Of a stretch of DNA of 64,000 nucleotides, positions 6,663 through 59,712 are shown one piece after another. A program made the position numbers and the translations under genes. Under the pieces are notes generated by a model. The model did no database searches. It saw nothing but the letters and a program-made list of their open reading frames with translations, and was not told the origin of the DNA. This DNA is from a virus: IMG/VR virus record IMGVR_UViG_3300020183_000009; one strand, given 5' to 3'. The first letter of the stretch is position 1, and every line of letters begins with the position of its first letter.

Positions 6663-6974
6663 ATGAAATCAGAATTAAAAGGTATTGTTAAGTATATTGA
6701 GAAAGTGTACAACCCATCTAAGATTAAAATTATTAATTATGTAGAATTTATCAATGAACCTCTTGTTAGTCTTTTCTTTGATGAAATTAGTGATGACTTT
6801 ATAACCAACCCTCAGTCAAATAACATTAAACGATTAAAAGAAAAAAATTTGGAAAGACAAATCAGGAAGGATATATATAACTACTTCGGTGTTATGACCT
6901 CGGGTTTAACTCTTGATGGGTCTTCTCCCTATACTTTCCATGGTTTGACTATTGATGTTCATTTAAGGGATTAG
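6663..6974 (+). CDS. Hypothetical protein
   Basis: Start moved to MKSELK directly after TATTTATATTTAT. Confidence 0.7.
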   Translation: MKSELKGIVKYIEKVYNPSKIKIINYVEFINEPLVSLFFDEISDDFITNPQSNNIKRLKEKNLERQIRKDIYNYFGVMTSGLTLDGSSPYTFHGLTIDVHLRD

Positions 6975-7441
6975 TTATTCTCTAAATTATCCATATAGTA
7001 ACCTAAAACCATATTAAAGATATCATCTAATATATCTTTTGGTAGTTCTTCATAGTGACGATATGTTTCCCCTAAATCTGTTTCATATTTATATCCCCCA
7101 TAATGGAATACTGCAACATCTTCTTTATATATCATTTCTATTTGTGAAAGTTTACCGTCTTCATCCCTAAGAACTATCGGGTTTTCATTCATATCCATTA
7201 GTGTGATATATTCATCTTCATCATCGTTAGTGTGAGCGGTTGTCTCTACTATCTCTTTGATAATCTTAATCTTATTGTTTGTTGACAGGAACTCATCCCC
7301 TAAAATACTTAGAAGGTCTTCTACACTTCCGACCATCTCTGCGGTCTTTAGAAATCCCAGCTTACTTGCCAGAATTAATAACTTCATTTGTTTTTCGGTT
7401 TCTTCCCTTAATATTCTTCTTATGGATTCTTGTAGGTTCAT
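6971..7441 (-). CDS. MNLQE-leader protein with short helical (HTH-like) module
   Basis: MNLQESIRRILREE; LGFLKTAEMVG. Confidence 0.85.
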   Translation of the reverse strand: MNLQESIRRILREETEKQMKLLILASKLGFLKTAEMVGSVEDLLSILGDEFLSTNNKIKIIKEIVETTAHTNDDEDEYITLMDMNENPIVLRDEDGKLSQIEMIYKEDVAVFHYGGYKYETDLGETYRHYEELPKDILDDIFNMVLGYYMDNLENN

Positions 7442-7947
7442 TATGATTGGTAATCAAAATCGTAGTTTATTATATGTTCTGGCGATATAATACCTTCATA
7501 CGCTATTGCTCCCCATATATCAATACTCTCAATTATTTTATCTTCATCAGTATTGGCTTTATTCCATTTATATTGATTCATAATATAATCATCGTCCCAC
7601 GTAATTTTATTAGGATTTAATTGAGTAACATCAATTGTTAATCTAACAATAGGTTTTTCATCTTCTTCGTTCTCATAGTAATCATCCATAATGTCCATTA
7701 AATCTTGTGGTAAGTTTGCCCCATATAAACTAGATTTATTTGTTAAAAACACACCCTGAATCCCTTTTTCATAAAAAGAGTTTGGGTATTTTCGGGGGAT
7801 TAAACCTTCTTCTTGTATTTCGTCCAAATTATGTGTTGGGGTATAATGATATAGATATTTACCCTTAATAAGGTATGGTTTTAATTTATCTATTAAACTA
7901 TTAAATTCTTCCCTTAATACTCTTCTTATGGTTTCTTGTAGGTTCAT
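7441..7947 (-). CDS. MNLQE-leader protein, Tpt1/ART-like fold
   Basis: LYHYTP..NLDEIQEEGLIP...VFLT...I.P pattern. Confidence 0.7.
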   Translation of the reverse strand: MNLQETIRRVLREEFNSLIDKLKPYLIKGKYLYHYTPTHNLDEIQEEGLIPRKYPNSFYEKGIQGVFLTNKSSLYGANLPQDLMDIMDDYYENEEDEKPIVRLTIDVTQLNPNKITWDDDYIMNQYKWNKANTDEDKIIESIDIWGAIAYEGIISPEHIINYDFDYQS

Positions 7948-7948
7948 A

Positions 7949-8359
7949 TTATTCAGTTCCTTTATGTATTAATGTTAGTGCCTGAGGAGGGATTCTATCA
8001 AATGTGACGATATGTTTGTCTTGTTTTTCAGAAAATAAATGAGTGTCTTCATACCACACCACATCGGGTATCATTGATGTATCTATCGCCCATACATCAC
8101 CATCCCATTTTGTTGCAAACCATTGTTTTGGGTTTTTACTATTTGTTGCAAATATCGCAGGTTTACATTTGGTTATACTCATAATTCCAACATATTCCTT
8201 ATAACAAAAACCAACTTTAGGTATTAAACCATTTTCCATAATTGATTTTCTATTTTTTTTATCTGACTTATGAATTATAGTTTTTTTTGGTTTAACAATA
8301 TCTCCTTCAGGTGAATAAAGTTCCCTTAATACTCTTCTTATGGTTTCTTGTAGGTTCAT
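7949..8359 (-). CDS. MNLQE-leader protein, Tpt1/ART-like fold (paralog of 12572 N-domain)
   Basis: IIHKS..NRKSIMENGLIP...AIFATNS...HIVTFDRIP. Confidence 0.75.
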   Translation of the reverse strand: MNLQETIRRVLRELYSPEGDIVKPKKTIIHKSDKKNRKSIMENGLIPKVGFCYKEYVGIMSITKCKPAIFATNSKNPKQWFATKWDGDVWAIDTSMIPDVVWYEDTHLFSEKQDKHIVTFDRIPPQALTLIHKGTE

Positions 8360-8428
8360 TTATAAATTTTTTATTGGTAGTTTATCTACACCAAGTAAAT
8401 TTAATAGATTAGCTCTATGGTTAAAAAT
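8360..8428 (-). pseudogene. C-terminal remnant of a ParB/Srx-like gene
   Basis: IFNHRANLLNLLGVDKLPIKNL* with no start, in frame after the upstream stop. Confidence 0.35.
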
Positions 8429-9223
8429 TTAGATAGTTCCATACATATAATTATTTTTCAATTTCATGTCTTTAATAAACTTATCATAAGACGCTTTATA
8501 TGATTTTTGTGTTTCATCGTTAGCGTTTTTGGTATATTGCCAGTTCCAATAAAGTTTGTCGTTAGGTTTGAATCCATAAAATCGATGAACTTCTTTTTGT
8601 ATTTCAGTGACGTTCTCACCATTCCAATTTTGTCCAACACAAATGAACCCTGTTTCAATATTTTTAACAAGGTTTGATTCACCAAGTGTTGTGTGTCTGT
8701 TTTCAATCCAATTTAATCTTTCCATTAAATTCTGATAGTACATGTTTGCTTGTCCCCACCTAATTGAAGAAAAGAATAACAAAGCATCTGATTCAAATAA
8801 CTCCTTTGATACTTTCCATAGTTGGTCTGACGGTTCGTTAATGTTTACCCAACATCTATGATGACCTGATGGGTTCTTTTTCTTATCTTTGAGCATTGCT
8901 TTTAACAACCCACAAGAGTTTCCATCGGCTCTTGATACATTACCTTCACAAGGAAGTATTTTAAGTTCTGTGATATCTATTAAAACCGCCTTATCACCAA
9001 GTTCTTCTTTGATGTGTAGTGCTAATAGTTTTGATTTCGGAATGTCGGGTTTTTTGGGGTCGAATTGGTATCTATTTGAACATGAAAGTAAAAGAACTTT
9101 ATCTTTCTTTTTTAAGATGTCTATGGTTTGTTTTAGTTTTTTATAACCATCACTTTGCACCATTTCTTCTGACAACATAAGTTGTCTTAATCTCACTAAT
9201 TCTTCTTCTAAAATAGACTTCAT
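8429..9223 (-). CDS. Flavodoxin-like / NADPH-dependent FMN reductase fold protein with ILEE..LSEE leader
   Basis: LLLSCSNR, ILPCEG, ESDALLFFSSIRWG..MERL pattern. Confidence 0.7.
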   Translation of the reverse strand: MKSILEEELVRLRQLMLSEEMVQSDGYKKLKQTIDILKKKDKVLLLSCSNRYQFDPKKPDIPKSKLLALHIKEELGDKAVLIDITELKILPCEGNVSRADGNSCGLLKAMLKDKKKNPSGHHRCWVNINEPSDQLWKVSKELFESDALLFFSSIRWGQANMYYQNLMERLNWIENRHTTLGESNLVKNIETGFICVGQNWNGENVTEIQKEVHRFYGFKPNDKLYWNWQYTKNANDETQKSYKASYDKFIKDMKLKNNYMYGTI

Positions 9224-9247
9224 AATAATAAATATCACCTAACTTGT

Positions 9248-9490
9248 TTGTTAGATAAAGAGTTTTCCTTATATTTGAATTATGAAACTATTGAAGTATC
9301 TTATCATATATCGAACAACCAAGAACCTGTATTGAAATACTCAGATAAACCTAATGTGGAAGTTCCTAAATCTATGTGTAAAAAAGAAGAACTAATGAAA
9401 TCATTAGATTATCTTAAAAGTAAAAAGAGCCCAACAAAACAAGACAAAGAGTCTATCTACACTATTGAAATGGTATTAAAGAATATGTGA
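9248..9490 (+). CDS. Small hypothetical protein (start uncertain, possibly 9374)
   Basis: ORF track. Confidence 0.4.
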   Translation: MLDKEFSLYLNYETIEVSYHISNNQEPVLKYSDKPNVEVPKSMCKKEELMKSLDYLKSKKSPTKQDKESIYTIEMVLKNM

Positions 9491-9493
9491 TTG

Positions 9494-10726
9494 TTATACA
9501 AAAACTTTGGGTAGTTCATCCCATGATGTTGTATATTTTTGTGTGATGTAATCCTGTCTCATTTCCCAATCGTGAGTTTCGTTGAAAGGTTTTTCAACCA
9601 TATCAAACACATCGTTAAACATTGATGCTTGAATAACTTTGTCAGATGTAAGTTCGTTAAATACAATACCACACTTTTTATACTTCTCTGACTTTTGACA
9701 CAACTTTTTATATTGTTCATAAATCTGTGACCATATTAAATCGGTATCTCGAGTTGGTGTTTGAAGTTTAATTGTTTTGGAATGGTGGTACTTATCTCCT
9801 TTGTGATAATTTCCTGATACGAATATGGTTGCTTTATTCGCAAACAATCCGTTTTCTTTTAGTTTCTTCACTCCGTTTTGTATATACGTATACATTGCTT
9901 CACCAAGTTGGTTAAAGTCCTCCACATCCTTTCCAAATGAACGAGTGGATGCGATATTTCTTTTTGGTTTAGATTGTTTTTGAATTGGGTGGCAGTATAA
10001 CCCCAACAACTCTAACTTTGTTTTTAGTCCATTTATATTCATTAACTTTCTTACCGTGTAGTCACTCATATTCATAAATTGACCCACAGAATTAACTTCA
10101 ATGTTTTTTAATTTTTTAGCCCATTTTCTACCAATCCCCCAAACCTCATCAACATCAATTTCATAACACATATTTCTAAAATTTGGTAAATCCCAAAATG
10201 AACATACCCCGTTATAGTTTATCTGTTGTTTAGCTAAAAAGGATGTTAGTTTAGCTAAAGTTTTATTTGGACCAACACCAATAGATACTGGTATTCCAAC
10301 TTTTTTTCTCACTTCTTCTTTAATTGCAAGAAGTGTTTCATTGAGCTCTTCTTGTGGTATGTTTGAAAAGTCCACAAATGCCTCGTCAATAGAATAAACC
10401 TCAATGTCATTTCCAAACTCACCAATCACTTTCATAACTCTATCTGACATATCACCATACAAGTTGTAGTTTGATGAATACACACAGAATCTATGTTCGT
10501 CCATAAACTCACGACTTTTAAAGAATGGTTCACCCATTTTAATTCCGAGAGCCTTTGCTTCTTGTGAACGAGCAATAACACACCCATCATTATTTGATAA
10601 TACAACGGTAGGTCTACCAATAGATTCAGGATTAAATAATCTTTCACAACTTACATAAAAGTTGTTACAATCAATAATTCCAATCTTTCTTACATTTTCT
10701 TCAGTACCCATGTTACTTTTCCCCAT
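9494..10726 (-). CDS. umuC: Y-family DNA polymerase V subunit UmuC
   Basis: [38 protein letters not shown]-terminal YTTSWDELP. Confidence 0.95.
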
Positions 10727-11007
10727 AAGTTTTTTTGTCCTTTGAACTCTCTAAGTTTGAAATATGTTTTGTCTGTTAAAATAACGAGGTCACCTTCTTT
10801 TGGTTCTTCATTTCGGTCAATAACAATTGTATCACCGTTATTTACACCAAAGACATTCGGACCTGAATACTTGAAGTAAAATGTTGTATAGTGGTCTTTT
10901 ACAATCAAATCATTCAAGTCAAGGCGTTTATCAACGTAGGTTTCAGCAGGTGATGCGAACCCTGTTGTTGTTGCGTTAATGTGAATTGGATTTTGGTGTC
11001 TTAACAT
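10690..11007 (-). CDS. umuD: UmuD-like S24 protein (catalytic residues apparently lost)
   Basis: [24 protein letters not shown]; directly upstream of umuC. Confidence 0.8.
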
Positions 11008-11045
11008 ATATTAAAAGATAAGAAAAGTAAACCATAAAAAAAAGA

Positions 11046-11073
11046 AAAATCCCCAACTTTTTTGTGGGGATTT
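11046..11073. terminator. Intrinsic terminator
   Basis: aaatcccca...tggggattt hairpin. Confidence 0.7.
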
Positions 11074-11076
11074 GTA

Positions 11077-11241
11077 TTATTTTTTAGACCATTCTTGATA
11101 CTCCCTTCTATCTTTTATAATAGTAGGAACAATAAATAATATTATGGACAACCAAAGATAAATCATTTTTTTAACCAAGTCCGTTTTTTTAGTACCAGTT
11201 TCTTCCCTTAATACTTTTCTTATGGATTCTTGTAGGTTCAT
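11077..11241 (-). CDS. 54-aa MNLQE-leader membrane peptide (not in ORF track)
   Basis: MNLQESIRKVLREETGTKKTDLVKKMIYLWLSIILFIVPTIIKDRREYQEWSKK*. Confidence 0.7.
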   Translation of the reverse strand: MNLQESIRKVLREETGTKKTDLVKKMIYLWLSIILFIVPTIIKDRREYQEWSKK

Positions 11242-11537
11242 AAATTAATATTTTCTTTATACCATTTATGTAATCTATTACCAAATACATCCATAATTTT
11301 TGAATGTAGTTTTGGGTCGTAATATCCATTTTCATCACCACAATTACTTCTTATATATGCCGTTAATATTATTTGGTAACTATACCAATCCAATTGTCTT
11401 CTTCTTACTGGTATAGTTTCTTCCCCATTCTCTAATTTTTTTATGTATTCATCAATACAATAATATCTTCTTCTGATATACAGTGGAATTTCTATTTCTT
11501 CCCTTAATATTCTTCTTATGGATTCTTGTAGGTTCAT
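11238..11537 (-). CDS. MNLQE-leader protein (IRRR family)
   Basis: Start moved to MNLQESIRRILREE; TATTTAT upstream. Confidence 0.8.
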   Translation of the reverse strand: MNLQESIRRILREEIEIPLYIRRRYYCIDEYIKKLENGEETIPVRRRQLDWYSYQIILTAYIRSNCGDENGYYDPKLHSKIMDVFGNRLHKWYKENINL

Positions 11538-11550
11538 ATTGATATAAATA

Positions 11551-11931
11551 TTAAATAAATGTATCTTTATACTCTTCAAAATATTTATCAAATTCAGAAT
11601 AATTTTCAAAAAGTTCTTGTCCTATTTCGATATCTTCAAGAGCTATTACTATTTCATTTAAAATTTTAAGATTAGGTTGACTACTATGATTAACAAAATT
11701 TGTTAAATCACAAGAAGAATAGTAATAATCACCATCTATCCAACCATATTTATCAAAATATTCTTGTTGGGCTTTAGACATCTGTTTTACACAATCAACA
11801 GAAACTTTAATATCGACACCATCCACAAATTCCCAAACGGTAGCACCTTTTGGTATAAATTCTAAAGCAAATAAACCTAACCCCATTATTGGATTTGTGG
11901 CTACTTTAACTTCTGTTCTAAATAAAAACAT
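11551..11931 (-). CDS. SET-domain lysine methyltransferase
   Basis: GLGLFA..FIPKG, FVNHSSQPN, ALEDIEIGQELFENY. Confidence 0.85.
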   Translation of the reverse strand: MFLFRTEVKVATNPIMGLGLFALEFIPKGATVWEFVDGVDIKVSVDCVKQMSKAQQEYFDKYGWIDGDYYYSSCDLTNFVNHSSQPNLKILNEIVIALEDIEIGQELFENYSEFDKYFEEYKDTFI

Positions 11932-11934
11932 TAT

Positions 11935-12570
11935 CTATTTTTCATTTTGTTTTTTAAAATCTGTAATATAACTTTCATCAGTAAAATATCCTCTAGTAGA
12001 ATCTACTGTGTAAATATTTCTGTCAATTATATATCCTGGATTTTTATTAATTCTACTGAAAGTATATGCTTTGTCTATCCATATTATTCTATTGTTTGGA
12101 TAAATAAAATAATTTCCATTATCCATTTTAAAAAAATGACCACATTTGTGTTCAGTTGTTTCAGAAAAATTAGTATCTAACATTACTTTATTTTCGTGTG
12201 ACCAATCTAAAGTAAACATATAAACCCCAAGTCTTTTAACACCTGTTATCGAAATTAATTCTGCACTCAAGGGATAAAGTCTTGCTCTTACTTGAACATC
12301 AATATAAGGACTAAAACAATCCCAATATACGTGTTCAGTTAAGGGTAAAACTTCTGCATCTTTTTTCCAAGCAAAAGCATGTATTGGTCTTCTAGTCCAA
12401 TTGACACCATTTTCTAATAAAGCTTCGAATAAAGGAACCATCCCTTCTACCGAAGCCACTGAATGGATATTTGCAGTTGTAAACTCACCGTGTCCTTTTT
12501 CGTGATTAAATAAAAATTCATTTCTAATAAAACAAGGAGTGATTGGTAAATTATGATTTAGGTACGACAT
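11935..12570 (-). CDS. Conserved phage hypothetical protein
   Basis: 211 aa ORF, typical composition. Confidence 0.75.
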   Translation of the reverse strand: MSYLNHNLPITPCFIRNEFLFNHEKGHGEFTTANIHSVASVEGMVPLFEALLENGVNWTRRPIHAFAWKKDAEVLPLTEHVYWDCFSPYIDVQVRARLYPLSAELISITGVKRLGVYMFTLDWSHENKVMLDTNFSETTEHKCGHFFKMDNGNYFIYPNNRIIWIDKAYTFSRINKNPGYIIDRNIYTVDSTRGYFTDESYITDFKKQNEK

Positions 12571-12571
12571 A

Positions 12572-13924
12572 TTATTTCTTTTTTATTTTTACACAATTAG
12601 GGTATCTCTTACCAAACATTGTTTTCATTCCTTTTTGAGTATAACCTGGCCAACACTTTTCAGTTAATTCTGCTTCAGTATGTTCTTGTTTCTGTAACCT
12701 AATGGTTTTCTCTTTTGACTTTTCTTTCACCGATTCAATATAATCATACGCTCTTTTTAACCTTTGTTTTGTTTCAGGGTCTTTTGCGTTTTGATAAGCC
12801 GCTCTTACTCTTTGATGGATAAGATTAATAATTTGTGATTGTCTTTTATGAGGTTTAGATTTAAAACTATCTTTGTTTAGTGTATCTACAATATCTTGTT
12901 TTGTTCTAAACTTTACAGATACTGTATCATTTGGATTTTCATCGGTATACAATCTTCTACCAGAACCTTCAGGTTTTTTTCCCGTTCCTGTCTTGGGGTC
13001 AGATTCATTCATTGTGTCTCTTGTATACTTTCTAAATCTTTGAGGGTTTGCTTTTATCGCTGACTTAGAAAATCTTAATCCATAACCTTGTCTTCTTGCA
13101 TTTTTTAGTGTTCTTGCGTATTCATCAAGTTCTTGTTCATCATTATCTATTATGTCTAATGTTTTGATGTTTGTTGAACTTTTAATCATTTTAGGAGCCA
13201 CTCCCTCATTATTTGCTTCTTCCCACCTTTTTGCACATAAACACCATTTGTCACCAGGTTCTAACATATGAAGATTGTTTCCCATTGATTTGGTAAACTC
13301 TAAAAACTCTTCTGTTACTCTTGCACACACCGTATGACTTCCTGTGTCGTCGTTTCCTGTTCTACAATACCCATCTCTATAATAACCTGTCATTGGTTTT
13401 TTTGAGCAGATTTTAAGTTTCTCACCATAGAGATTCTTATCTTCGGTAAATTCTTCCCTTAATATTTTTCTTATGGATTCATATAAGTTTGGTGAATTTT
13501 TATTCCATTTTTTTACATCACCACTTCCTGTTCCCTCATATTTTAGAGTTATCGCTTCTTTTGGTATGTCTTGGAATGTTACAATATGTTTTTTTGTTGA
13601 CTCAAAATGTCTATCTTTATACCACTTAACATCAGGAATCATTTCTGTATTAATTTCCCATATATCATCATCATATGTTGAATCAAACCATGCTCTTTTA
13701 TTTGTTGAGTTGGTTGCAAATATTGCGGGTTTACATTTAACTCCATAACCAACATATACTTTGTAACATTCTCCTGCCCTTACTTTAAGTCCGTGTTCCA
13801 TTATCTTATCTCTAAACATTGGATTTGATTTGTGAATAACAATATTATTTGGAATGATTTCTTTTCCTGCTGGTGAATAATCATCTTCCCTTAATATTCT
13901 TCTTATGGTTTCTTGTAGGTTCAT
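12572..13924 (-). CDS. MNLQE-leader multi-module protein: Tpt1/ART-like domain + DUF2237 + basic modules + CWxGY..PNCVK module
   Basis: Internal ESIRKILREE; PMTGYYRDGYC..HTVCA..GDKWCLCAKRW (DUF2237); C-terminal module shared with 22364. Confidence 0.8.
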   Translation of the reverse strand: MNLQETIRRILREDDYSPAGKEIIPNNIVIHKSNPMFRDKIMEHGLKVRAGECYKVYVGYGVKCKPAIFATNSTNKRAWFDSTYDDDIWEINTEMIPDVKWYKDRHFESTKKHIVTFQDIPKEAITLKYEGTGSGDVKKWNKNSPNLYESIRKILREEFTEDKNLYGEKLKICSKKPMTGYYRDGYCRTGNDDTGSHTVCARVTEEFLEFTKSMGNNLHMLEPGDKWCLCAKRWEEANNEGVAPKMIKSSTNIKTLDIIDNDEQELDEYARTLKNARRQGYGLRFSKSAIKANPQRFRKYTRDTMNESDPKTGTGKKPEGSGRRLYTDENPNDTVSVKFRTKQDIVDTLNKDSFKSKPHKRQSQIINLIHQRVRAAYQNAKDPETKQRLKRAYDYIESVKEKSKEKTIRLQKQEHTEAELTEKCWPGYTQKGMKTMFGKRYPNCVKIKKK

Positions 13925-14697
13925 TTTGTTAAATCAATATACCAAACTTTTATTGGTTCAACTCCCATCTGTAAAGCAATTGTACTTCTTTTATGTCCAC
14001 CAATTAAAATATACTCATTACCTTCTCTATCATTAGTATTAAGTTTTATAACAAATGGTGCTGGAAGTTCTCTTGGTTCATCTTTTTTTGCATAGTCTCT
14101 TTGTTGTTCTATATTTCCGATATATCCACCAAGCTGGTCTTTGTATTCTGAATCTTTATATTGTTTTGTAAACCCACCTGTTGTCGTATCTTTATATTCG
14201 GGGTCCCATTCCATAAACTTTCCAAGTTTACCCATATAGAAAGTTTTATCTGTATTATCAATATATTCTCCTGTTTGGGGGTCTGTACCTTTCCAAACTT
14301 TCATCACACCTTTGTTGAAGAAATTAAATGCCTCTTTTTGTGACTTAGTATCATTAATTAAAACATGTCTGAAATTACCCCAATCATCCATCAATTCATG
14401 TATTTCTTTATTCAATAATAAATTTTTGATTTCTTCATCACTTTCCAATTCTTCCCCTTTAGAATGTTCCGCAATCATTTTGAATGTATGAGGAAATAAA
14501 GAATACATTTGGTCAAAGTTATCAGGGTGAAAGAATTCCCCTTTTGAAAACCTCATCTCATTTCCCAACAATTCACTCAACTCTTGTCTAAAGTATTCTT
14601 GTGTTGGTTCTAACCATTCTACTTTGTATGGATTAGTCACTTCAGTAAGAAGTCCCATCATTTGTTTAATTCTTGATATGTTTTCTTGTAGGTTCAT
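13921..14697 (-). CDS. MNLQE-leader protein with C-terminal ParB/Srx-like domain
   Basis: YILIGGHKRSTIALQMGVEPIKV. Confidence 0.7.
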   Translation of the reverse strand: MNLQENISRIKQMMGLLTEVTNPYKVEWLEPTQEYFRQELSELLGNEMRFSKGEFFHPDNFDQMYSLFPHTFKMIAEHSKGEELESDEEIKNLLLNKEIHELMDDWGNFRHVLINDTKSQKEAFNFFNKGVMKVWKGTDPQTGEYIDNTDKTFYMGKLGKFMEWDPEYKDTTTGGFTKQYKDSEYKDQLGGYIGNIEQQRDYAKKDEPRELPAPFVIKLNTNDREGNEYILIGGHKRSTIALQMGVEPIKVWYIDLTK

Positions 14698-14708
14698 ACG
14701 TAATAAAT

Positions 14709-14900
14709 TTAATTATTATCTTGTCTTAATTCTTCTTCATCAATTAACCTATTGAGTTCTTTTTCAAGATATTCAAAATCCTCTTCAGAACGATAAATAT
14801 TTGTCCATCCTGGTTTTTCTTCTTTAAGTTCTTTAAGTAACTTTTCTTTACCTAATTCAGCATCTTTTCTATTCCATTTGTTATTTCCCCTTGAGTACAT
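14709..14900 (-). CDS. Small hypothetical protein
   Basis: 63 aa, fills the gap between co-oriented genes. Confidence 0.6.
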   Translation of the reverse strand: MYSRGNNKWNRKDAELGKEKLLKELKEEKPGWTNIYRSEEDFEYLEKELNRLIDEEELRQDNN

Positions 14901-14906
14901 ATAATT

Positions 14907-16085
14907 TTAGTTTTTTTCAAATTGTCTATTTATAACTTTGAACCTTGTAATTTCCTCAAATGGTAGTATCATTGCCCCAAAATCTTTGTTACTTAACTGA
15001 ATTACTTTTTTCATAGTACCATCTTTTTGTTTTTCTTCCCAACTTCCATTGAAAGTCCAAACCTTGTTTGTTTTTTCATCAAATACCTCATCACCCCCAT
15101 TTGGTTCCAAATTTTTATATTTTTCTATTTTTTGTTTTATTGTTTCTTCTGTTTCATTTTCTAAACTATCATACCAATCATAATATACTTGACCCAACCT
15201 ATCAATCAAACTTTGAGACGCCCTAACAGAATTTTTGTCTGTGTATTTTTTTTCAACAAAGTTTTTGAATATTTCTTCTACATTCAGATTAGTATTTTTA
15301 TCAAAAATTAAAATTTGTTTCTGAAGAAGTAATGTCATCAAATCCTTTTCATACTTTGGGTTTGTTACCAAATCTTGATACACCATTTTTATTGCCGCAC
15401 TGTTACCCATACTACTTGTTATGTAACCAAGTTTTTTTATCATTTCAAGATAAATTAAAGTACCAAGACCTTTGCCCCTCAACTTATCAGGAACACCTTT
15501 AGGAAAGTGTATTCTATTTTCTGTTGGTTCTAATGTTACATAAATATTTCTTTCTTCCATAGACAACTGTTCTCTACATTCATCGGGTAGTTTAATTTTG
15601 TAAACTTTTGCTCCAGGCTCTCTTACCCAATAACTTTCAAGTGATTTATCACCTTTGGCAACCATTGGGCCAAGTATTTCAAAATTTGTTGGGTCACAAT
15701 TTACCTTATCAGATACTTGATTTGGTTTTTGGTCGAGTAATTTTGTATTAAAATATTTCTCAAAAGCCCGTTTCAAGAAATTATTAAAGGCTCTTTTTCC
15801 ATCGGCTTTTAACGAATTTAAATATCTATTATCAATCTTTATATCATCTTGTAAAATTACCTCTCCATATTTACCATAGTCTTTAACAATAGAATTTTTG
15901 AATTTTACAAAATCTCCACCCGATTCTTTAAGTTTTGGTTCGAATATTATTATAAGTTCATCTGTGTATTTATCAAAATATTTTATATTCATAGTTAGAT
16001 AGGAATCGTCAGGTAAATCTGTTACCACTTCTTTCAGAAGTCCCATCATTTGTCTGATTCTCTGTATGTTTTCTTGTAGGTTCAT
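14907..16085 (-). CDS. MNLQE-leader protein with GNAT-like domain
   Basis: VPDKLRGKGLGTLIY acetyl-CoA-binding motif A. Confidence 0.7.
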   Translation of the reverse strand: MNLQENIQRIRQMMGLLKEVVTDLPDDSYLTMNIKYFDKYTDELIIIFEPKLKESGGDFVKFKNSIVKDYGKYGEVILQDDIKIDNRYLNSLKADGKRAFNNFLKRAFEKYFNTKLLDQKPNQVSDKVNCDPTNFEILGPMVAKGDKSLESYWVREPGAKVYKIKLPDECREQLSMEERNIYVTLEPTENRIHFPKGVPDKLRGKGLGTLIYLEMIKKLGYITSSMGNSAAIKMVYQDLVTNPKYEKDLMTLLLQKQILIFDKNTNLNVEEIFKNFVEKKYTDKNSVRASQSLIDRLGQVYYDWYDSLENETEETIKQKIEKYKNLEPNGGDEVFDEKTNKVWTFNGSWEEKQKDGTMKKVIQLSNKDFGAMILPFEEITRFKVINRQFEKN

Positions 16086-16100
16086 ATCCGTATTATTTTT

Positions 16101-16535
16101 TTACCATAAATTATCAGAAATATATTTCTTTACTATAATTTTCATAACATCCCCCAATTTGAAATCAACTACTTCTTTGACATATTTAGAATATTCTCTA
16201 CTCTGTTGAGTTTTCCCCAAATAAACACTTAAACAATATTCAGTAGAACACCAATATTTACCTTCACCTAAATTACTACCCAAAGTTATACCATCCTTGT
16301 ATAAAACTTTATGAAGTTTTTTATTATCAAAGTCAACGAATTTTTTATTGAATTCTTTACCACTTATTACATTTGATTTTTTAATTTCAAATTTAGAATA
16401 TACTTTTAACTTTTTTGGTTCTGTGAACAGTACAATCCCGTTTTCTTCATATATCGGGTCATACAAACCATCAATTAAAATATCTTTATTTAATTCTTCC
16501 CTTAATATTCTTCTTATGTTTTCTTGTAGGTTCAT
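16101..16535 (-). CDS. MNLQE-leader hypothetical protein
   Basis: MNLQENIRRILREE. Confidence 0.8.
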   Translation of the reverse strand: MNLQENIRRILREELNKDILIDGLYDPIYEENGIVLFTEPKKLKVYSKFEIKKSNVISGKEFNKKFVDFDNKKLHKVLYKDGITLGSNLGEGKYWCSTEYCLSVYLGKTQQSREYSKYVKEVVDFKLGDVMKIIVKKYISDNLW

Positions 16536-16558
16536 AATAATAAATATCATATATTTAT
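16533..16558. promoter_or_regulatory. Divergent TATTTAT promoter pair, copy 1
   Basis: cataataataaatatcatatatttat, identical to 18876-18901. Confidence 0.65.
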
Positions 16559-16564
16559 CTTTAT

Positions 16565-16876
16565 ATGGTAGAACAATTAGAAAGTTTAATACGTAAGATT
16601 ATCTTTAAGAAATATCCATTATTAACCAATGTTTCTATTGAGGATATGTATGGTGATTTTAGTCTTACTTCTATGTTGGGGAGTTCTTTTATGTGTAAAT
16701 TTAAATCAGAGGAGTGTTTATCTGAGAAAGAGCATATGGAGATTGATACAGAAGTTAAAACTCTATTTGAAATGCTATCCCCCGATTCGAGTGATTTTAG
16801 AATACCTAGTATTCGTTGTTTCTTCGATTGTGGCGACGGTTACGAATTTAAAATGTCATATGGTTATAAACATTAA
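16565..16876 (+). CDS. Hypothetical protein
   Basis: MVEQLESLIRKII (leader-like); TATTTAT upstream. Confidence 0.75.
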   Translation: MVEQLESLIRKIIFKKYPLLTNVSIEDMYGDFSLTSMLGSSFMCKFKSEECLSEKEHMEIDTEVKTLFEMLSPDSSDFRIPSIRCFFDCGDGYEFKMSYGYKH

Positions 16877-16898
16877 TAGAGTATTTATATAATGTAAT

Positions 16899-17656: not shown

Positions 17657-17657
17657 C

Positions 17658-18878: not shown

Positions 18879-18901
18879 AATAATAAATATCATATATTTA
18901 T
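18876..18901. promoter_or_regulatory. Divergent TATTTAT promoter pair, copy 2
   Basis: Identical 26 bp to 16533-16558. Confidence 0.65.
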
Positions 18902-18907
18902 GATTAT

Positions 18908-20836: not shown

Positions 20837-20842
20837 AATAAA

Positions 20843-30564: not shown

Positions 30565-30576
30565 ATTAATAAATAT

Positions 30577-47070: not shown

Positions 47071-47169
47071 AACAATAAATATCATAAAAATAAAAAAAGG
47101 GAGATGTTACTCTCCCTTGGGGCCGATTAAGGCAATCCACCACTTTGTTTTACGAACAAAGAAACGTTA

Positions 47170-49982: not shown

Positions 49983-50414
49983 TTAATATTCTTTTTTAAG
50001 TTCTCTATATATATCTCTTTCTTTAATTGTTTCTCTTTTATCGTATAGTTTTTTACCTCTACCTAACACTATTTCAACTTTAACCAAACCTTTATCATTC
50101 ATAAAAACTTTATATGGTAAAATAGTAAAACCTTTCACCAAATTATTACTCAATCGATTTAATTCTTTCTTTTTTAACAAAAGTTTTCTATCTCTTTTTG
50201 CATTGTGAGTAAAAGCATCTTTAGTTTCAGATATGAGGATATTTTTAACAAATAATTCCCCATTATTAAAATAACAGAATGAGTCGTTCATGGATATCTT
50301 ACCGTTTCTAATGGACTTTATCTCGGTCCCTTGTAGAACGATACCAGCAGTATAAGTTTCTAATATGTGATATTCAAATCTTACTTTCCTATTTTCAATA
50401 TAAACTTTACCCAT
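49983..50414 (-). CDS. smpB: SsrA-binding protein SmpB
   Basis: NRKVRFEY, AGIVLQGTEIKSIR, RKLLLKKKE, GKKLYDKRETIKERD. Confidence 0.95.
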   Translation of the reverse strand: MGKVYIENRKVRFEYHILETYTAGIVLQGTEIKSIRNGKISMNDSFCYFNNGELFVKNILISETKDAFTHNAKRDRKLLLKKKELNRLSNNLVKGFTILPYKVFMNDKGLVKVEIVLGRGKKLYDKRETIKERDIYRELKKEY

Positions 50415-50995: not shown

Positions 50996-51337
50996 ATGAG
51001 ATTAAAGATAAAAAATAATACATTTAAAATCAAAACAGTCTTTTCACAAAAAGACACTCAAAAAGGGATGATGGGTCGTAAATTTAATTCAACATTTAAT
51101 GGTATGTTGTTCTTAATGAATGAAGGTCAACATTGTTTTTGGATGAAGAACTGTATTATACCTTTAGATATCATTTTTATTAATGGTAATAAAATAACCG
51201 AAATACATCATAATTGTCCTCCATGTAAAACTGAAGAATGTGATAATTTTTGTGGTGAGGGTGATACGATATTGGAGGTTAAGGGAGGTACTTGTAAAAG
51301 TCTATATATCAATATTGGTGATACTATCCATTTTTAA
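50996..51337 (+). CDS. DUF192 family protein
   Basis: GMMGR..GMLF..FWMKN..PLDIIFI..ILEV.GG. Confidence 0.85.
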   Translation: MRLKIKNNTFKIKTVFSQKDTQKGMMGRKFNSTFNGMLFLMNEGQHCFWMKNCIIPLDIIFINGNKITEIHHNCPPCKTEECDNFCGEGDTILEVKGGTCKSLYINIGDTIHF

Positions 51338-52730
51338 TTTTATCCTCCAAAACTCTAACAAATTCACTCTGAACCATTTTGGTAAATTTTACATATGGAG
51401 CGTCGTCAGAATCAGGGTTATATTTGTATTTGTTGGCAGGTGGTCTTTTACTTCTACCCATATAATTTAAACCTGAAATATTCGTAATACACTTGTGTCC
51501 TCCACTATTGGCCTGAATAACATCCCAAGCGGTTACAGTAATATTATCCAACATCTCTTTTTCTTCTTCACTTAAAGATGTAAATGGTTGGTTCATCATT
51601 TCTCCAATATCCTTTAATTTTTGTTTACCATTTTCCATGGTTTTAAAATCATTTCCGTAGATAGCAACAAAATCTTTAAAAGTAAAACCAACGGAATGTC
51701 CACCAAATTCTTTAGAAAATTCAGAAACCCATTTTATAGTTGATAATGGTATATCTCTTCTTTTAAGTTGTGACTCCCATTTAGATAAAACTTCTTGACC
51801 CATCTCACCTAAATTAACACCTTTCAATTCTCTATCTTCCTTAAATGGGTTGCAAGACGCTTGTACTAAACCTAAAGGCCAAGCGATAACTAAAAAATCA
51901 GCTTCAGGATTATTTTTAAATGGTGTGTACCTATCATAAGAACCTGGTACCATTGTACTACCACCACCGTATTGTACGATAACATTACCCATAACTTTAA
52001 CATTAGGGTGTGATTTCATCTGTTGGATATATCCTTCTTTGTTTTTTTGTAACTGTTCTTGCCCTACGTAACCCTTTTCAACCATAATTCTTTTTATGTT
52101 TTGAAGTAGGTTCATGATTGATGGTGTTGTGGTCATTACAAGTTCTTCAAGGAAACCTGGTTTGTTTTTAAACGCCAATAATAATTTATTTGCAACTAAC
52201 CCTAAAGCCATTTTATTTTTTTGTAATCCTTTTTCTTTATCTAATCTGAAAAGATAATTGATAACCTCGTCAACACTTATTTTATTAGCCGCATAATTTG
52301 CCGAATCCACAGTAGATATTAACAATAAGTCGTCACTTGAGAAGATTTCTTTTGGTGAAACTACTTGTGAAATGGTTTCAACATTTGACCTTGATTGTCT
52401 AAAAGATGTTGACTTGGTGTCTTCAGCACCTGCTTGTCTATCATGGTGGTCTGTATGTATAACAAACATTGGTTTACCATGGGCGAAATCCACTAAAACA
52501 GGCATCACATCACCAGTCGCATCATTTTTTTTTACGGCAAATTCTTTATCCCCATATTGGATTACGTGAGTATCAATAACATTAATACCATTACTTTCTA
52601 AGTAATGTTTCATAGCGATTGCCGTGGCAACTCCATCTAAATCTTGGTGAAAGTATATTTCGGCTTTAGGGTATCTTCTAGCTAATTTTCTAATGTCCCT
52701 TAAACCACTCTCTTTGATAAGTCTTTTCAC
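51324..52730 (-). CDS. DHH-family phosphoesterase with LIKES leader
   Basis: HQDLDG, LVDFA, TDHH, C-terminal GGH. Confidence 0.8.
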   Translation of the reverse strand: MKRLIKESGLRDIRKLARRYPKAEIYFHQDLDGVATAIAMKHYLESNGINVIDTHVIQYGDKEFAVKKNDATGDVMPVLVDFAHGKPMFVIHTDHHDRQAGAEDTKSTSFRQSRSNVETISQVVSPKEIFSSDDLLLISTVDSANYAANKISVDEVINYLFRLDKEKGLQKNKMALGLVANKLLLAFKNKPGFLEELVMTTTPSIMNLLQNIKRIMVEKGYVGQEQLQKNKEGYIQQMKSHPNVKVMGNVIVQYGGGSTMVPGSYDRYTPFKNNPEADFLVIAWPLGLVQASCNPFKEDRELKGVNLGEMGQEVLSKWESQLKRRDIPLSTIKWVSEFSKEFGGHSVGFTFKDFVAIYGNDFKTMENGKQKLKDIGEMMNQPFTSLSEEEKEMLDNITVTAWDVIQANSGGHKCITNISGLNYMGRSKRPPANKYKYNPDSDDAPYVKFTKMVQSEFVRVLEDKIKNG

Positions 52731-55769: not shown

Positions 55770-56885
55770 TTAATCTTCTTTATATTCGTTCAATAATTCC
55801 TCACTTGTAAGAATACCATTATATTTCTTTGCAACCTCATCAAAATTTTTAACACTTACATTACTAAACATATTTTGAACTGTTTCATCAAGTTCATTTG
55901 CCATATCAATGGTGTCAGAAATAACTTTTATAATTTCGTAAGGATTTGCATTTGATGCAGGTCTTCTATCTTCAATATAACCTTTCCATTCTTTAGCGGT
56001 TGATAATGGTACTCGTATTGAGGCTCCTCTATCACTTACACCCCAACTAAATTTATTAATTGATTGTGTTTCATATTTACCTGTTAACCTTAAATCATTA
56101 TCGGAACCATAAACTTCAATGTGAGTATCTCTTCGTGATTCTAAAGCATTAAATAAAGAATTGAAATACTTTTCCCCACCCTCATTTCTCATTTTGTGTG
56201 TTGAAAAATTAGTGTGGAGCCCTGACCCGTTCCATTCTCCGATTCTCAATGGTTTAGGGTGATATTCAATCCAATAACCGTATTTTTCTGAAAGTTTTTC
56301 CATTAAATATCTTGACATCCATAGGTCGTCCCCAGCTTTTAATTTACCTTGTGAGAATACTTGGTATTCCCATTGACCTAAAGCAACTTCAGCATTTACA
56401 CCTGTTATATTTATACCCATACTTAAACATAAATCCATATGTTCTTCAACAATATTTCTACCTATTACATTATGTCCAACACCACAATAATATTTACCTT
56501 GTGGTTCAATAAAACCTTTAGTATGTCCTAATATTTGTCCTCCCAATTCTCGTATAAAGTACTCTTGTTCAAACCCAAACCACATGTCTCTATCTTCCTC
56601 ACCCAATTTAGCTCTTTGATTTGTTTCATGCGGTGTTCCGTCAGAATTCATTACTTCACATAATACATAAACCCTATCAACACAACCTACTTCACGATAC
56701 ATTCTCACAGGTTTTAGAATACAATCTGATTTATCACCTTCAGCCTGTAAGGTAGAAGAACCATCAAAATTCCATTCAGGGATTGATGTGAAATCTGTAA
56801 CGTCAATATTACTTACTTTAATTTTACTTCTCAAATTTGGTTCTGGTGTATAACCATCAAGCCAAATATACTCTATTTTTGTCAT
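55770..56885 (-). CDS. glnII: Glutamine synthetase type II
   Basis: EYIWLDG, WNFDGSST.QA, FGFEQEY, NAEVALGQWEYQ, WNGSGLHTNFS, GYIEDRRPASN. Confidence 0.92.
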   Translation of the reverse strand: MTKIEYIWLDGYTPEPNLRSKIKVSNIDVTDFTSIPEWNFDGSSTLQAEGDKSDCILKPVRMYREVGCVDRVYVLCEVMNSDGTPHETNQRAKLGEEDRDMWFGFEQEYFIRELGGQILGHTKGFIEPQGKYYCGVGHNVIGRNIVEEHMDLCLSMGINITGVNAEVALGQWEYQVFSQGKLKAGDDLWMSRYLMEKLSEKYGYWIEYHPKPLRIGEWNGSGLHTNFSTHKMRNEGGEKYFNSLFNALESRRDTHIEVYGSDNDLRLTGKYETQSINKFSWGVSDRGASIRVPLSTAKEWKGYIEDRRPASNANPYEIIKVISDTIDMANELDETVQNMFSNVSVKNFDEVAKKYNGILTSEELLNEYKED

Positions 56886-56887
56886 AT

Positions 56888-57260: not shown

Positions 57261-58032
57261 TAGGTAATAATTTTTTTACTTTGTTACTTTCTTTTTTAAT
57301 TGTTTGGGTTATGTAACTCATTATTTTTCTTTTAAAGATTGGTATTAGAGTTTCTTCAAGAGGAAAAATTTCATTACATAACACTTCAAATACAGGATAC
57401 TTGTGACTTTTAACTTTAATATCTTTACTTAAAAAGTTAAGAATAATATCAGTAGGTGTCAAATCCGAATTGTCACTTTCATAGATTAATTTTAAAAATG
57501 TTTTTGGTTGGGTATCTTCTTTTTTTTGTTTTCTAATATTATATCTCCAAATATATAATTTTTCTTTAGCTTGATAATAAAAGAATCCCATTTTGGAATC
57601 TATATTAGATTTGTTTTTCTTTAAATTTACGGTGATGGAATCATAAACTATTGACCACACTGATTTTGTAATACCAAAATAGTCTTGTAGTCTTGGGTGA
57701 CTGAATTTAAGTATTTTTCGGTACTCATCGTATTCATCATCCGCAAGTACAGGTATGTCTTTTAATTTTAAATCAGATAAAATATATTCATCATCAAATG
57801 ATGATAACTTTTTTTCAGAGTATAAAATTTTATCTTGATTAATAAGTGTTTGGATGTTACCTAAATGTAATGAAAGTTCTGTAAACATCGGATAAACTTT
57901 CATTTGTTCTAAATCTTTATTTAACTTTTGAAAGTAATCCAATAAAATATATTGTTTTTGTTCTGAGTCTATAATTCCGTTGAACAACCAATCGGTATCC
58001 ATTACAAACTTTATTTTATTTTTCCTTGTCAT
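57250..58032 (-). CDS. Hypothetical protein
   Basis: IDSEQKQYILLDY..PLEETLIP. Confidence 0.75.
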   Translation of the reverse strand: MTRKNKIKFVMDTDWLFNGIIDSEQKQYILLDYFQKLNKDLEQMKVYPMFTELSLHLGNIQTLINQDKILYSEKKLSSFDDEYILSDLKLKDIPVLADDEYDEYRKILKFSHPRLQDYFGITKSVWSIVYDSITVNLKKNKSNIDSKMGFFYYQAKEKLYIWRYNIRKQKKEDTQPKTFLKLIYESDNSDLTPTDIILNFLSKDIKVKSHKYPVFEVLCNEIFPLEETLIPIFKRKIMSYITQTIKKESNKVKKLLPNGV

Positions 58033-58078
58033 AACTACTTAAAATATAGATAAAGTTTTTTTAAAAATGAATAGGTGG

Positions 58079-59470
58079 TTAACTCACTTTCATAATATAG
58101 TAAATTTCCCCATCAAATTCTACTTCATCATAAGTACCATCATTTCCATTCATAACTCCCCATCCATCCTCGTCAACCAATCCTTGAGCTAATTCATCCT
58201 CATCCACAAAATTTTCCAAATTTAAACTATGTACTTTAATAAAATTCATAGGGTCTCTCATGTATCTATTTACAATACCTTCCAATTTATCATCTACCAT
58301 ATCTTGACTTGGTTCATCATCTGGTTCAATACTATCTAACTCATCTTGAGCCTTATCCTTTTTTTCCTCAACTTCGTCAATCATTTTTTGGATTTCGTAA
58401 TACTTTTTGTCATATTCTTCAGGGTCCTCTAATTCATCGTAAGCCTCATTTTGTTTTTCTTCAAGGTCTGAAATATAATCCTCAAGTTCGGAAATATAAT
58501 TTTCAAGTTTACTAATTCTTCTTTCTTGTTCTGCAGTTAATTCAAAATCATCGTCATTAAAATAAACTTCAGGATTTTGCCAAATATCATCTTCATACCA
58601 TTCCCTTATATAATCTCTTAGATAATCCTCATCTATATAATTTTCAACAAAATGGTTTCTGAATCCATCCATTCCTACGTCATCAATATAATTTTTAGCA
58701 TATTTTAAAGCTGCGTCATCCATCTCTTCCGAAGTACCAACAGTGTATTCATTATTTTTAAACCCTGGTAATAAAACCTCAAAGGTTGTTAATCCATAAT
58801 GCGTCCATCTCATTGGATTTAAATCGTAAACATCTCCTTCATCTTCACCAAGGTCTGATATCTCATCTTCAATTTCAGATATTCTTTCCTCAATTTCCTC
58901 AGTATATTCTTCTTCGTTTTCAAGTCTTTCAAGTTCAGTATTCAACTCTTTTAATTTTTCCTTATCTTCATTATTCAAAACTTCAACATCTCCGTTATCA
59001 ACTAAAAATTTAAAAAGTGCGTTAGCTTTTATACCTTCATCGTCAGTATCTTCAGGGTCCCATATATTACCAAGTCGTCTACGATTACCCTCAGACCTTT
59101 TTTCTCTAAGTTCCGCCGCTAATCTTTTTGCTTCTATTGGGGAATCACTATCCCAAACATGTTTTCTAACTGTAATACCATCAATATTAGAGATTTTGGT
59201 CCTACTAATACTAAGACTACCATCAACATATTTTACATTACCCAATGAGTCCATGGGTGTATTTGAAACATCTAAATCTCCCGTTATCCATAATGGTTTA
59301 CCCTGAAACTTAGGTAATCTACTAATCCCTTGTCCATGGTAACCTGAAAGTTTTAAAAGTTCTTTATATTCTTCAGGGGATATTTTATAATATTCTTCCT
59401 CGGATTGTTCTCTTATCAACCCTAACAATCTATTCATTTTATTTTCCGATAAAAAAATTCTACGATTCAT
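58079..59470 (-). CDS. Very acidic coiled-coil protein with FLSE..IREQ leader
   Basis: 463 aa; TATTTAT upstream. Confidence 0.8.
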   Translation of the reverse strand: MNRRIFLSENKMNRLLGLIREQSEEEYYKISPEEYKELLKLSGYHGQGISRLPKFQGKPLWITGDLDVSNTPMDSLGNVKYVDGSLSISRTKISNIDGITVRKHVWDSDSPIEAKRLAAELREKRSEGNRRRLGNIWDPEDTDDEGIKANALFKFLVDNGDVEVLNNEDKEKLKELNTELERLENEEEYTEEIEERISEIEDEISDLGEDEGDVYDLNPMRWTHYGLTTFEVLLPGFKNNEYTVGTSEEMDDAALKYAKNYIDDVGMDGFRNHFVENYIDEDYLRDYIREWYEDDIWQNPEVYFNDDDFELTAEQERRISKLENYISELEDYISDLEEKQNEAYDELEDPEEYDKKYYEIQKMIDEVEEKKDKAQDELDSIEPDDEPSQDMVDDKLEGIVNRYMRDPMNFIKVHSLNLENFVDEDELAQGLVDEDGWGVMNGNDGTYDEVEFDGEIYYIMKVS

Positions 59471-59568
59471 AATTATAAATACCCTAAAAAATAAATAAGG
59501 TATTGTTTACTATTAAATCAATTTGGGTGATATTTATTGGTATAATAAACCTATTAAAAAACTTAAAT

Positions 59569-59712
59569 ATGGGATGCGGTTGTAAAAACAAAGGAAATCA
59601 GGCGGCACAACAACCATCACAAAGTGCTCAACCTGCTAAAGAACAAGTTAAATCACCAAACATTCAAGAATCTATTAAAAAGGTTGTTGAGAAGTATTAC
59701 AACAAGAAATAA
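59569..59712 (+). CDS. Small MGCGCK protein
   Basis: Start moved to MGCGCKNK; C-terminal NIQESIKKVVE. Confidence 0.7.
   Translation: MGCGCKNKGNQAAQQPSQSAQPAKEQVKSPNIQESIKKVVEKYYNKK

Follow-up and report, generated by a model that had tools for sequence, protein, structure and literature searches.

In phage T4, unrelated proteins share a short N-terminal capsid-targeting sequence (CTS) whose last residues are (L/I)-x-E. The first 10 residues of the T4 internal protein IPIII are enough for head targeting, with residues 4 and 7 serving targeting and residues 8 and 10 processing (PMC9026906). The protease gp21 cuts after L/I-x-E, and the propeptides removed from T4 virion components range in length from 7 residues in Alt to 65 in gp23 (PMC9026906). 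It has been proposed that the CTS may be the route by which T4-like phages bring varied proteins into their heads (PMC9026906), and the same has been proposed for polymorphic internal proteins (PMC3012670). Beyond T4, phiKZ-like phages (phiKZ, 201phi2-1, SPN3US) use a gp21-related protease, with cleavage after Glu, to mature many of their head proteins (PMC9026906). In phages and conjugative elements, polyvalent proteins are predicted to travel inside the capsid and to be delivered together with the DNA, in some cases with proteolytic processing (Iyer, Burroughs, Anand, de Souza and Aravind 2017; PMC5512222), which is attributed to their own internal metallopeptidase (MPTase) domains (PMC5512222). 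Here, we analyzed a 64,000-nt stretch of the IMG/VR record IMGVR_UViG_3300020183_000009 (the window, in whose coordinates positions are given), in which about 30 genes encode proteins that start with one of a few short leader peptides.

The original prediction had taken these leaders for a modular address tag that loads effector proteins into the phage head for injection. Our analysis partly supports this interpretation, in that the sequence-level checks all came out in the predicted direction, and it is from these that we infer targeting, cleavage, packaging and injection. We put at roughly 0.5 the probability that the leaders are T4 CTS-like, head-targeting propeptides clipped by a protease, with the DNA of one of them, leader A, also acting as a shuffling handle. 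The T4 CTS is already known; what is new here is the scale, the interchangeable tags and the polyprotein forms.

Results

Leader peptides recur at gene starts

Upon translation, every leader start claimed in the original prediction begins an open reading frame (ORF) with the expected N-terminus. Leader A (MNLQE.IRR[IV]L[RK]EE or a close variant) opens 13 minus-strand ORFs within 6971-23597, in the form MNLQE[STN]I[RSQ][RK][IV]L[RK]E[ED] at starts 7441, 7947, 8359, 11241, 11537, 13924, 16535, 23181 and 23597, as MNLQENI.RI[KR]QMMGLL[TK]E at 14697 and 16085, and in diverged form at 17656 (MNIRKSIRRILKEE) and 18878 (MSLKQSIRRILKEE). A looser form, A2 (M[KR]NLI[KR]..[IL].E), was assigned to five ORFs, with loose starts (M[KR]NLI[KR]... 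or MEHLIKKIIKE) at 25077, 25983, 26310 and 44381, and a GTG start with a weak match at 52730. Leader B (MKY[LIF]ITE) opens six plus-strand ORFs (starts 16899, 18908, 19339, 19982, 34577 and 37129), and its variants open six others (2114, 22855 with a GTG start, 40358, 46279, 47070 and 59470).

A chance origin of the leaders is excluded. The degenerate leader A pattern had six exact matches in the window and none in 100 shuffles, the 35-nt leader A core matched nine times with ≤3 mismatches (control: 0), and the strict leader B pattern occurred 4-17 times per 300-kb relative, compared to zero for the reversed control. At the protein level, the fully degenerate leader A pattern was found at 113 sites in 76 loci on ~55 IMG/VR contigs of ≤308 kb; nearly all of these sites open an ORF and are preceded within a few codons by an in-frame stop, and a few lie at junctions. 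Across 596 Gb of bacterial and archaeal genomes, the same pattern was absent, and the leader peptide strings were not found in 8.4 million published papers and preprints.

The claim that almost every leader ends in (I/L)-x-E was borne out, with the motif contained in 29 of 30 leaders (endings ILRE, ILKE, VLRE, ITE, LTE, ISE and LSE). Of the window proteins, 42% have [IL]-x-E within their first 16 residues, vs 17% of internal segments of that length; in the relative G001, the values are 31% vs 14%, i.e., a 2.2-2.5-fold N-terminal enrichment with a sharp peak at residue 7. Judged by eye, secretion signals (Sec, Tat or lipoprotein), in which a basic N-region precedes some 10-15 residues of hydrophobic core, were rejected, the leaders being charged and amphipathic (MNLQESIRRILREE) or merely seven residues long (MKYLITE).

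Leaders are portable and detached from the protein body

The prediction of a portable tag on unrelated bodies held in most respects. After leader removal, the 30 proteins fall into 28 BLAST families, with BLASTP linking just three of them, and orthologous bodies carry either leader A or leader B at the same position. The 18908-19342 family aligns from the first body residue onward (alignment A1), with either MK[YIV][LIV]ITE[NS][QK] (9 aa) or MNLKEQIKKVLREETN (17 aa) placed before the same ...KP[IVA]L[HR]... start, and the family of the gene starting at 19339 shows the same swap. The same body is found with A, with B, or internally with no leader. One homologue of an "RRR"-domain protein (L008) carries B and A in tandem (MKIIITESQNNSLKRLLKEE), and composite leaders (...LTESDL..IVKRVLEE) are present in G001; A and B therefore look like two halves of a longer strand-plus-helix leader.

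Structure prediction indicates that the leaders are detached from the body fold. In the AlphaFold2 model of the leader A protein 7949-8359, the leader helix (residues 3-15) is isolated, with a predicted local distance difference test (pLDDT) score <50 compared to ~90 for the body; in that of the leader B protein 18908-19342, residues 1-6 are coil and the first ten residues have a mean pLDDT of 62, before a confidently modeled body.

The part of the prediction that did not fully stand is the unrelatedness of the bodies, since several leader A proteins share a remote "RRR" domain right after the leader. Together with the extended ...YLDD... N-terminal region common to several leader B proteins, this domain is what could be said for ordinary paralogy, i.e., one expanded family whose conserved N-terminus is merely tag-like. 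Yet the number of BLAST families, the range of bodies (ART-like, i.e., ADP-ribosyltransferase-like, HD, DUF2237 and novel folds) and the occurrence of the same body with A, with B, or internal and leaderless make paralogy a highly improbable explanation. A single-linkage clustering of all bodies was set aside because fusions had merged them into one giant component.

The phage belongs to a T4-like clade with a gp21-type protease

The source of the window is an uncultured lake-water T4-like jumbo phage, from a clade of freshwater T4-like phages with genomes of ~100-310 kb. Its DNA is present in at least 24 sequencing runs; those listed are all DNA, all labelled lake water metagenome, and there is no RNA run among the 24 listed. 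The window shares stretches of 70-95% identity with other leader-bearing contigs, of which G006 is the closest. The relative G001 is complete (308,574 bp, with terminal repeats), and its portal, terminase, sheath, capsid and protease genes are T4-like and in T4 order. When T4 replication proteins were compared to G001 by BLAST, primase and helicase were the sole matches. The nearest cultured relative by capsid is Flavobacterium phage immuto (41% identity), in which strict leader B was not found.

A gp21-like protease gene, whose presence the original prediction called for, was detected at the level of the clade rather than of this exact genome: Pfam Peptidase_S77 scored above cut-off in 10/10 leader-bearing contigs, including G006. 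The N-terminus of the G001 capsid protein aligns with the T4 gp23 propeptide (NKW...LEG, ...ENQ...) and ends in ASFLINE↓ATGEG, vs GSFLTE↓AEIGG in T4 (arrows mark known or predicted cuts, or joints between modules). AS[FH]LINE↓A is found in 6/6 genomes (G001 and five others, including G006), vs FLTE↓A in T4, the cut being placed from the alignment. The conservation of this maturation site makes it very probable that a hydrophobic-x-Glu specificity has been retained in the clade, with Asn at position P2 of the capsid site. Several T4 proteins have comparable N-termini: Alt (MELITE), gp67 (MEGLIE), gp68 (MLLIPE), gp22 (MLKEQLIAE) and gp21 (MNEPQLLIE), with ...TITE↓A in IPI. Since Alt starts MELITE, leader B (M-K-[YI]-[LI]-I-T-E) is nearly an Alt N-terminus. 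IPII and IPIII both start MKTYQEFIAE, and their first 30 nt are identical.

Around the head genes of the relatives, we also noted a leader B gene of G003 (L081:293-739, MKIIITENQ..., 148 aa) directly upstream, and on the same strand, of a prohead-core cluster that comprises a 155-aa protein, the S77 protease (L081:1354-2079), a 71-aa protein and the scaffold; in the other four genomes, an untagged 93-aa gene takes its place. The 269-kb relative G008 (contig of L005) has two Peptidase_S77 genes (31291-31773 and 233494-233940), and a scaffold-like protein upstream of the G006 capsid gene (L106:77-1471) includes a long run of MEMDDED repeats.

Polyproteins carry module joints that fit the protease motif

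Relatives encode proteins of 600-1057 aa whose modules are separate tagged genes in the window. In long proteins, the helix leader M[RK].LI[RK]H[IM]LKE occurs at the extreme N-terminus only. With module starts defined by homology to stand-alone genes, 11 of 11 lay directly after [LIM]-[NMRQK]-E↓[SN], at a spacing of ~100 aa and with P2 mostly N, as in the capsid site; in T4, P2 is Thr in both kinds of site. Given a background density of this joint motif of ~0.35 per 100 residues, 11 of 11 is therefore far from chance. In the 1057-aa protein, joint sites are found at residues 286, 393, 487, 613, 717, 817 and 915, often in the context ..NE↓S..KSE. Nearly all proteins with at least three such sites start with a leader; the leaderless exceptions are the G001 scaffold, a counterpart of T4 gp22, which gp21 cuts many times, a 2308-aa G001 protein with sites at background density, and one truncated-looking ORF. 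In leader A (MN-LQE↓S-IRRI-LRE↓E), the opening residues amount to a polyprotein joint preceded by Met. A Pfam search of seven polyproteins returned nothing significant, with one weak sub-threshold match to DUF5820.

Full leaders also occur inside proteins: 17 proteins (two in the window) carry Met-less internal leaders at module junctions, with two or three leader copies per protein, and these look like recent fusions. One of the two is the 450-aa product of 12572-13924, which resembles an ART gene (L036) up to its internal leader and a DUF2237 gene (L061) after it, so that its sequence identifies it as a fusion made at the internal leader.

Leader A is conserved as DNA as well as peptide

The DNA of leader A is conserved to a much greater extent than codon usage accounts for, a point missed by the original prediction. 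In 94 distinct copies, AAC is used at 94% (genome usage 26%), CTA at 83% (7%), ATA at 98% (31%) and AGG at 71% (9%); part of the conservation of leader A therefore need not reflect peptide function. Homology between the window and its relatives also breaks at leaders, with 24% of high-scoring segment pair end-points located there vs 7% expected, an excess that is partly trivial because leaders lie at gene ends.

These patterns raise the possibility that the leaders are mainly, and as their sole function, a DNA recombination handle, i.e., 42 nt kept uniform by gene conversion, whose peptide is tolerated and targets nothing. The codon departure, the homology breaks, the 450-aa fusion, the 17 proteins with leader copies at module junctions and the lack of conservation upstream of the leader A ATG would all fit such a handle. 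Conversely, the leader B peptide is kept with its codons varying freely, and diverged A and A2 retain the peptide pattern as their DNA drifts. The 113 leader A copies are in frame at ORF starts, with few at junctions, and polyprotein joints keep just hydrophobic-x-E↓S, which is no DNA handle. Where the original prediction had asked about leaders conserved only as DNA with frame-breaking changes, we found every leader A core copy in the window in frame on the coding strand, and none non-coding, out of frame or on the opposite strand, which rules out a free-standing DNA element. A handle as sole function thus appears unlikely, and as a second function it is compatible with head targeting. The simplest reading would be that leader A is both a peptide and a conserved piece of DNA, subject to repeated recombination at the leader, like T4 ipII/ipIII on a smaller scale.

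Upstream motifs and an alternative role for the leaders

Of all 7-mers, TATTTAT shows the strongest enrichment upstream of genes in G001 (17-fold, 78 genes). The distance from the motif to the gene is 20-25 nt for the protease gene, its neighbors in the head cluster and many large ORFs of the tail region, as opposed to 11 nt to the ATG for many tagged genes. A distance of just 11 nt suggests that the corresponding mRNAs may be leaderless. Among genes with one recognizable motif, the ratio of TATTTAT to TAnnTTTG is 22:1 for tagged and 97:45 for untagged genes. TATTTAT is not established as a late promoter, however, because it also precedes the helicase gene. Examples of upstream motifs are found at 16536-16550, 18879-18893, 34563-34576 and 47071-47085, and throughout G001; TATTTAT is phage-specific, TAnnTTTG precedes, e.g., the primase gene, and TATTTATA is the reverse complement of the T4 late promoter TATAAATA. 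TAnnTTTG resembles the -7 element of Bacteroidota sigma-A, and its presence before ~36 G001 genes suggests that the hosts are Bacteroidota.

Such start-proximal features could also point to a role unrelated to the capsid, with the leaders acting as docking or regulatory peptides (for a chaperone, a degradation adaptor, or a replication or transcription factory) or as a translation-efficiency element for mRNAs without Shine-Dalgarno or 5' leader. If TATTTAT at 11 nt does make these mRNAs leaderless, the first codons may matter for initiation. Leader A is predicted to be a free amphipathic helix, the cargo is acidic and small, and the internal full leaders show that a free N-terminus is not needed for the sequence to be retained, all of which such a role would accommodate. 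It leaves unexplained, however, the survival at polyprotein joints of hydrophobic-x-E↓[SN], which matches the capsid site, the interchange of a 9-aa strand-like and a 17-aa helical peptide on the same body, and the close resemblance between leader B and the way T4 Alt and the T4 core proteins begin; nor was a candidate hub identified. We consider this role doubtful, if less so than a DNA handle alone.

Tagged genes and their neighbors in the window

The leader A genes, all on the minus strand, begin with a 156-aa protein with an acidic, helix-rich body, whose homologues carry A or A2 leaders (6971-7441), a 168-aa protein of no known family (7441-7947) and a 136-aa protein with an ART-superfamily (Tpt1/KptA-like) body according to AlphaFold2 and Foldseek (7949-8359). 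Leader A next occurs on a 54-aa ORF that is possibly a remnant (11077-11241) and on a 99-aa RRR-domain protein (11238-11537). The 450-aa polyprotein (12572-13924) consists of an ART-like module, an internal leader A at residue 151 (the Met-less junction copy NLYESIRKILREE, ~13450-13489), a DUF2237 domain recognized by Pfam and further modules; its matches to cyanophages and other phages are confined to small modules. The A' variants MNLQENISRIKQMMGLLTE and MNLQENIQRIRQMMGLLKE head proteins of 258 aa (13921-14697) and 392 aa (14907-16085), followed by a 144-aa leader A protein with TATTTAT 11 nt before its ATG (16101-16535). Diverged leader A is found on a 111-aa RRR-domain protein whose L008 homologue has the tandem B and A leader (17321-17656), and on a 406-aa protein with a Pfam HD domain followed by an internal leader A and RRR module (17658-18878; Met-less internal copy DLQESIRRILKEE, ~18309-18347). 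The last two are a 109-aa RRR-domain protein (22852-23181) and a 139-aa acidic protein starting MKLQES... (23178-23597).

Looser A2 leaders precede a 114-aa RRR-like protein (MRNLIKNILKEE; 24733-25077, minus strand), a 48-aa ORF without [IL]-x-E (MKNLIRKTSREE; 25837-25983, minus strand), a 196-aa protein (MEHLIKKIIKE; 26310-26900, plus strand) and a 316-aa protein (MKNLIRLIVEQ; 43431-44381, minus strand). The weak leader-like start (GTG, VKRLIKES) of a 468-aa DHH-like protein (51324-52730, minus strand) makes it a doubtful member.

Leader B genes on the plus strand encode proteins of 141 aa (16899-17324), 144 aa with a novel fold and orthologues bearing leader A at the same junction according to alignment A1 and AlphaFold2 (18908-19342), 103 aa with leader A on homologues (19339-19650), 284 aa and acidic (19982-20836), 128 aa (34577-34963) and 125 aa (37129-37506). 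The variants, all on the minus strand, are MGKFIITEEEKK... (1764-2114, 116 aa), VKIIITE from a GTG start (22364-22855, 163 aa, with a C-terminal module in common with 12572-13924), MKIMLTE (39828-40358, 176 aa), MTKIVISE (45977-46279, 100 aa), MGNIIITE (46276-47070, 264 aa) and the composite B-plus-A-like leader MNRRIFLSENKMNRLLGLIRE (58079-59470, 463 aa). We also noted a further type of leader of ~20-30 aa, MK..FI[IT]EEEK..I..[LM][HY]... or ...GNVKPLITEQ, which ends in [VLI]-x-E-Q, i.e., hydrophobic-x-Glu, at 1764-2114, 2-304, 33385-33783 and 44527-44970 of the window and 19457-19993, 30107-31043 and 287929-291326 of G001, where several of the genes concerned adjoin head and neck genes.

Among the folds originally claimed for the bodies, ART-like (7949-8359, of the Tpt1/KptA type) and HD (by Pfam) were recovered, and the DHH and GT2 matches fell below Pfam cut-offs. 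Foldseek assigned the 7949-8359 body to the ART superfamily, with Tpt1/KptA as best match (E 3e-4, TM-score ~0.5); the AlphaFold2 model of the 18908-19342 body had no fold match in the PDB. Pfam and PHROGs searches of 20 tagged proteins returned DUF2237, HD, two unnamed PHROG families and two weak PHROG matches (~1e-5 to 1e-6), namely a tRNA nucleotidyltransferase, over the HD protein, and an integrase family. None of the 10 Pfam-recognized housekeeping proteins in the window is tagged (UmuC, S24 peptidase, glutamine synthetase-like, SmpB, Nudix, DNA methylase, glutaredoxin, thioredoxin, metallophosphoesterase and GT2).

Tagged proteins and their neighbors have an RNA-repair flavor, with Tpt1/KptA-like ART, HD and HAD domains (7949-8359, 12572-13924, 17658-18878 and 23714-24292), the HAD domain belonging to the "Swiss Army Knife RNA repair" family and carrying no tag; such proteins may counter host defenses that damage tRNA or other RNA. 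In the middle of the tagged cluster are genes for a UmuC-like Y-family polymerase (IMS, IMS_C) and an overlapping S24 peptidase (UmuD-like; 9494-11007), and a SET-domain protein (11551-11931, Pfam E 4e-12) is encoded between tagged genes; the SET gene and its neighbor at 11935-12570 are not beside the homologous tagged genes in the examined L036 stretch. Elsewhere, the window encodes SmpB, the partner of transfer-messenger RNA (49983-50414, Pfam E 5e-49), and a glutamine synthetase-like protein (Gln-synt_N, Gln-synt_C; 55770-56885).

Gene context also bears on a reading of the leader as a recognition sequence for a modifying enzyme (a radical-SAM/SPASM maturase), as in ribosomally synthesized and post-translationally modified peptides. 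This reading has in its favor an analogy, that of a shared N-terminal tag on unrelated phage proteins. No maturase-like gene was seen beside the tagged clusters in the window, and the radical-SAM family PF04055 was absent from 5/5 complete relatives, with the control positive in 14/14 genomes, which leaves it the least credible of the explanations considered.

Discussion

Under the head-targeting reading, a short peptide (leader B, i.e., MK-hydrophobic-hydrophobic-I-T-E, leader A, i.e., the amphipathic helix MN-LQE-S-IRRI-LRE-E, or the two in tandem) would bring the attached protein into the prohead core during head assembly. A gp21-type prohead protease would then cut after hydrophobic-x-Glu, and the mature proteins would stay inside the head and then pass into the cell alongside the DNA. 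The polyproteins of relatives would need a single N-terminal leader, their bare [LIM]-x-E↓[SN] joints being cut by the same protease. Near-identical leader A DNA would meanwhile provide a homologous crossover point and, therefore, tag swapping, fusions at leaders and a large, changeable repertoire. More tentatively, the whole could represent a plug-in cargo system, in which dozens of fast-evolving and mostly unknown proteins, an ART/Tpt1-like and an HD enzyme among them, are addressed to the head by interchangeable leaders. Their genes would be stand-alone or joined into polyproteins with protease joints at intervals of about 100 residues, and a 42-nt element would serve both as protein address and as the recombination or cassette junction at which cargo genes are shuffled, fused and split.

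Several observations weigh against head targeting. [IL]-x-E alone is weak evidence because the motif is frequent by chance (14-17% of internal 16-residue segments), and some orthologues of the 18908-19342 type lack the Glu (MKYIIPNN, MKLIIPDT). TATTTAT is placed differently before tagged and structural genes and is shared with the helicase gene, and the DNA of leader A is more uniform than its codons require. There are no head genes in the 64-kb window, and a tblastn search with three window proteins (two tagged, and one untagged 562-aa ORF) found no match among 50,697 GenBank phages. To our knowledge, ~30 tagged genes in 64 kb exceeds any known set of head cargo. Finally, and also missed by the original prediction, the tagged bodies are mostly acidic, with a median isoelectric point of 4.7-5.3 vs 5.7-6.5 for untagged proteins, whereas T4 internal proteins have been described as basic (PMC9026906).

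If the leaders are true head-targeting signals, they mark proteins injected with the DNA, i.e., first-minute weapons against host defenses, and these candidates lie almost all outside known families. The T4 CTS, known from a handful of proteins, would then scale to dozens of cargoes and to polyproteins, and a simple rule, a leader plus hydrophobic-x-E joints, would help find effectors of this kind in metagenomes. Engineers, too, would gain the parts for loading foreign proteins into phage heads, namely short portable tags (7-17 residues) and a protease to match, as has been done with the T4 CTS (PMC9026906).

Among described systems, the T4 CTS is the most similar: in both cases, a short N-terminal peptide ending in (L/I)-x-E is found on unrelated proteins, in a lineage with a gp21-type protease and a homologous capsid maturation site. 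T4 ipII and ipIII share identical tag DNA, as leader A paralogues nearly do, and T4 Alt is an ADP-ribosyltransferase starting MELITE, with one leader A body here having an ART fold. The two differ in scale, T4 having a handful of tagged genes as against ~30 within 64 kb, and dozens in each genome, here, and in form, with at least three interchangeable tags (A, A2 and B), tandem and internal copies, and polyproteins jointed about every 100 aa. They also differ in that the cargo here is mostly acidic rather than basic and that the tags are unlike MKTYQEFIAE. The phiKZ-like phages likewise place many different proteins in a large head and use a short Glu motif and a gp21-related protease, but their propeptides are longer, there is no shared portable tag and the motif is S/A-x-E; in that lineage, the capsid gene order is not T4-like and virion RNA polymerases are carried. 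Like polyvalent proteins, which string several effector-type domains together, the polyproteins described here are long, modular phage proteins. The domains are different, however, with no significant Pfam domain in seven polyproteins and one module ART-like by fold, and here the joints fit the motif of the prohead protease and each module is also found as a single tagged gene.

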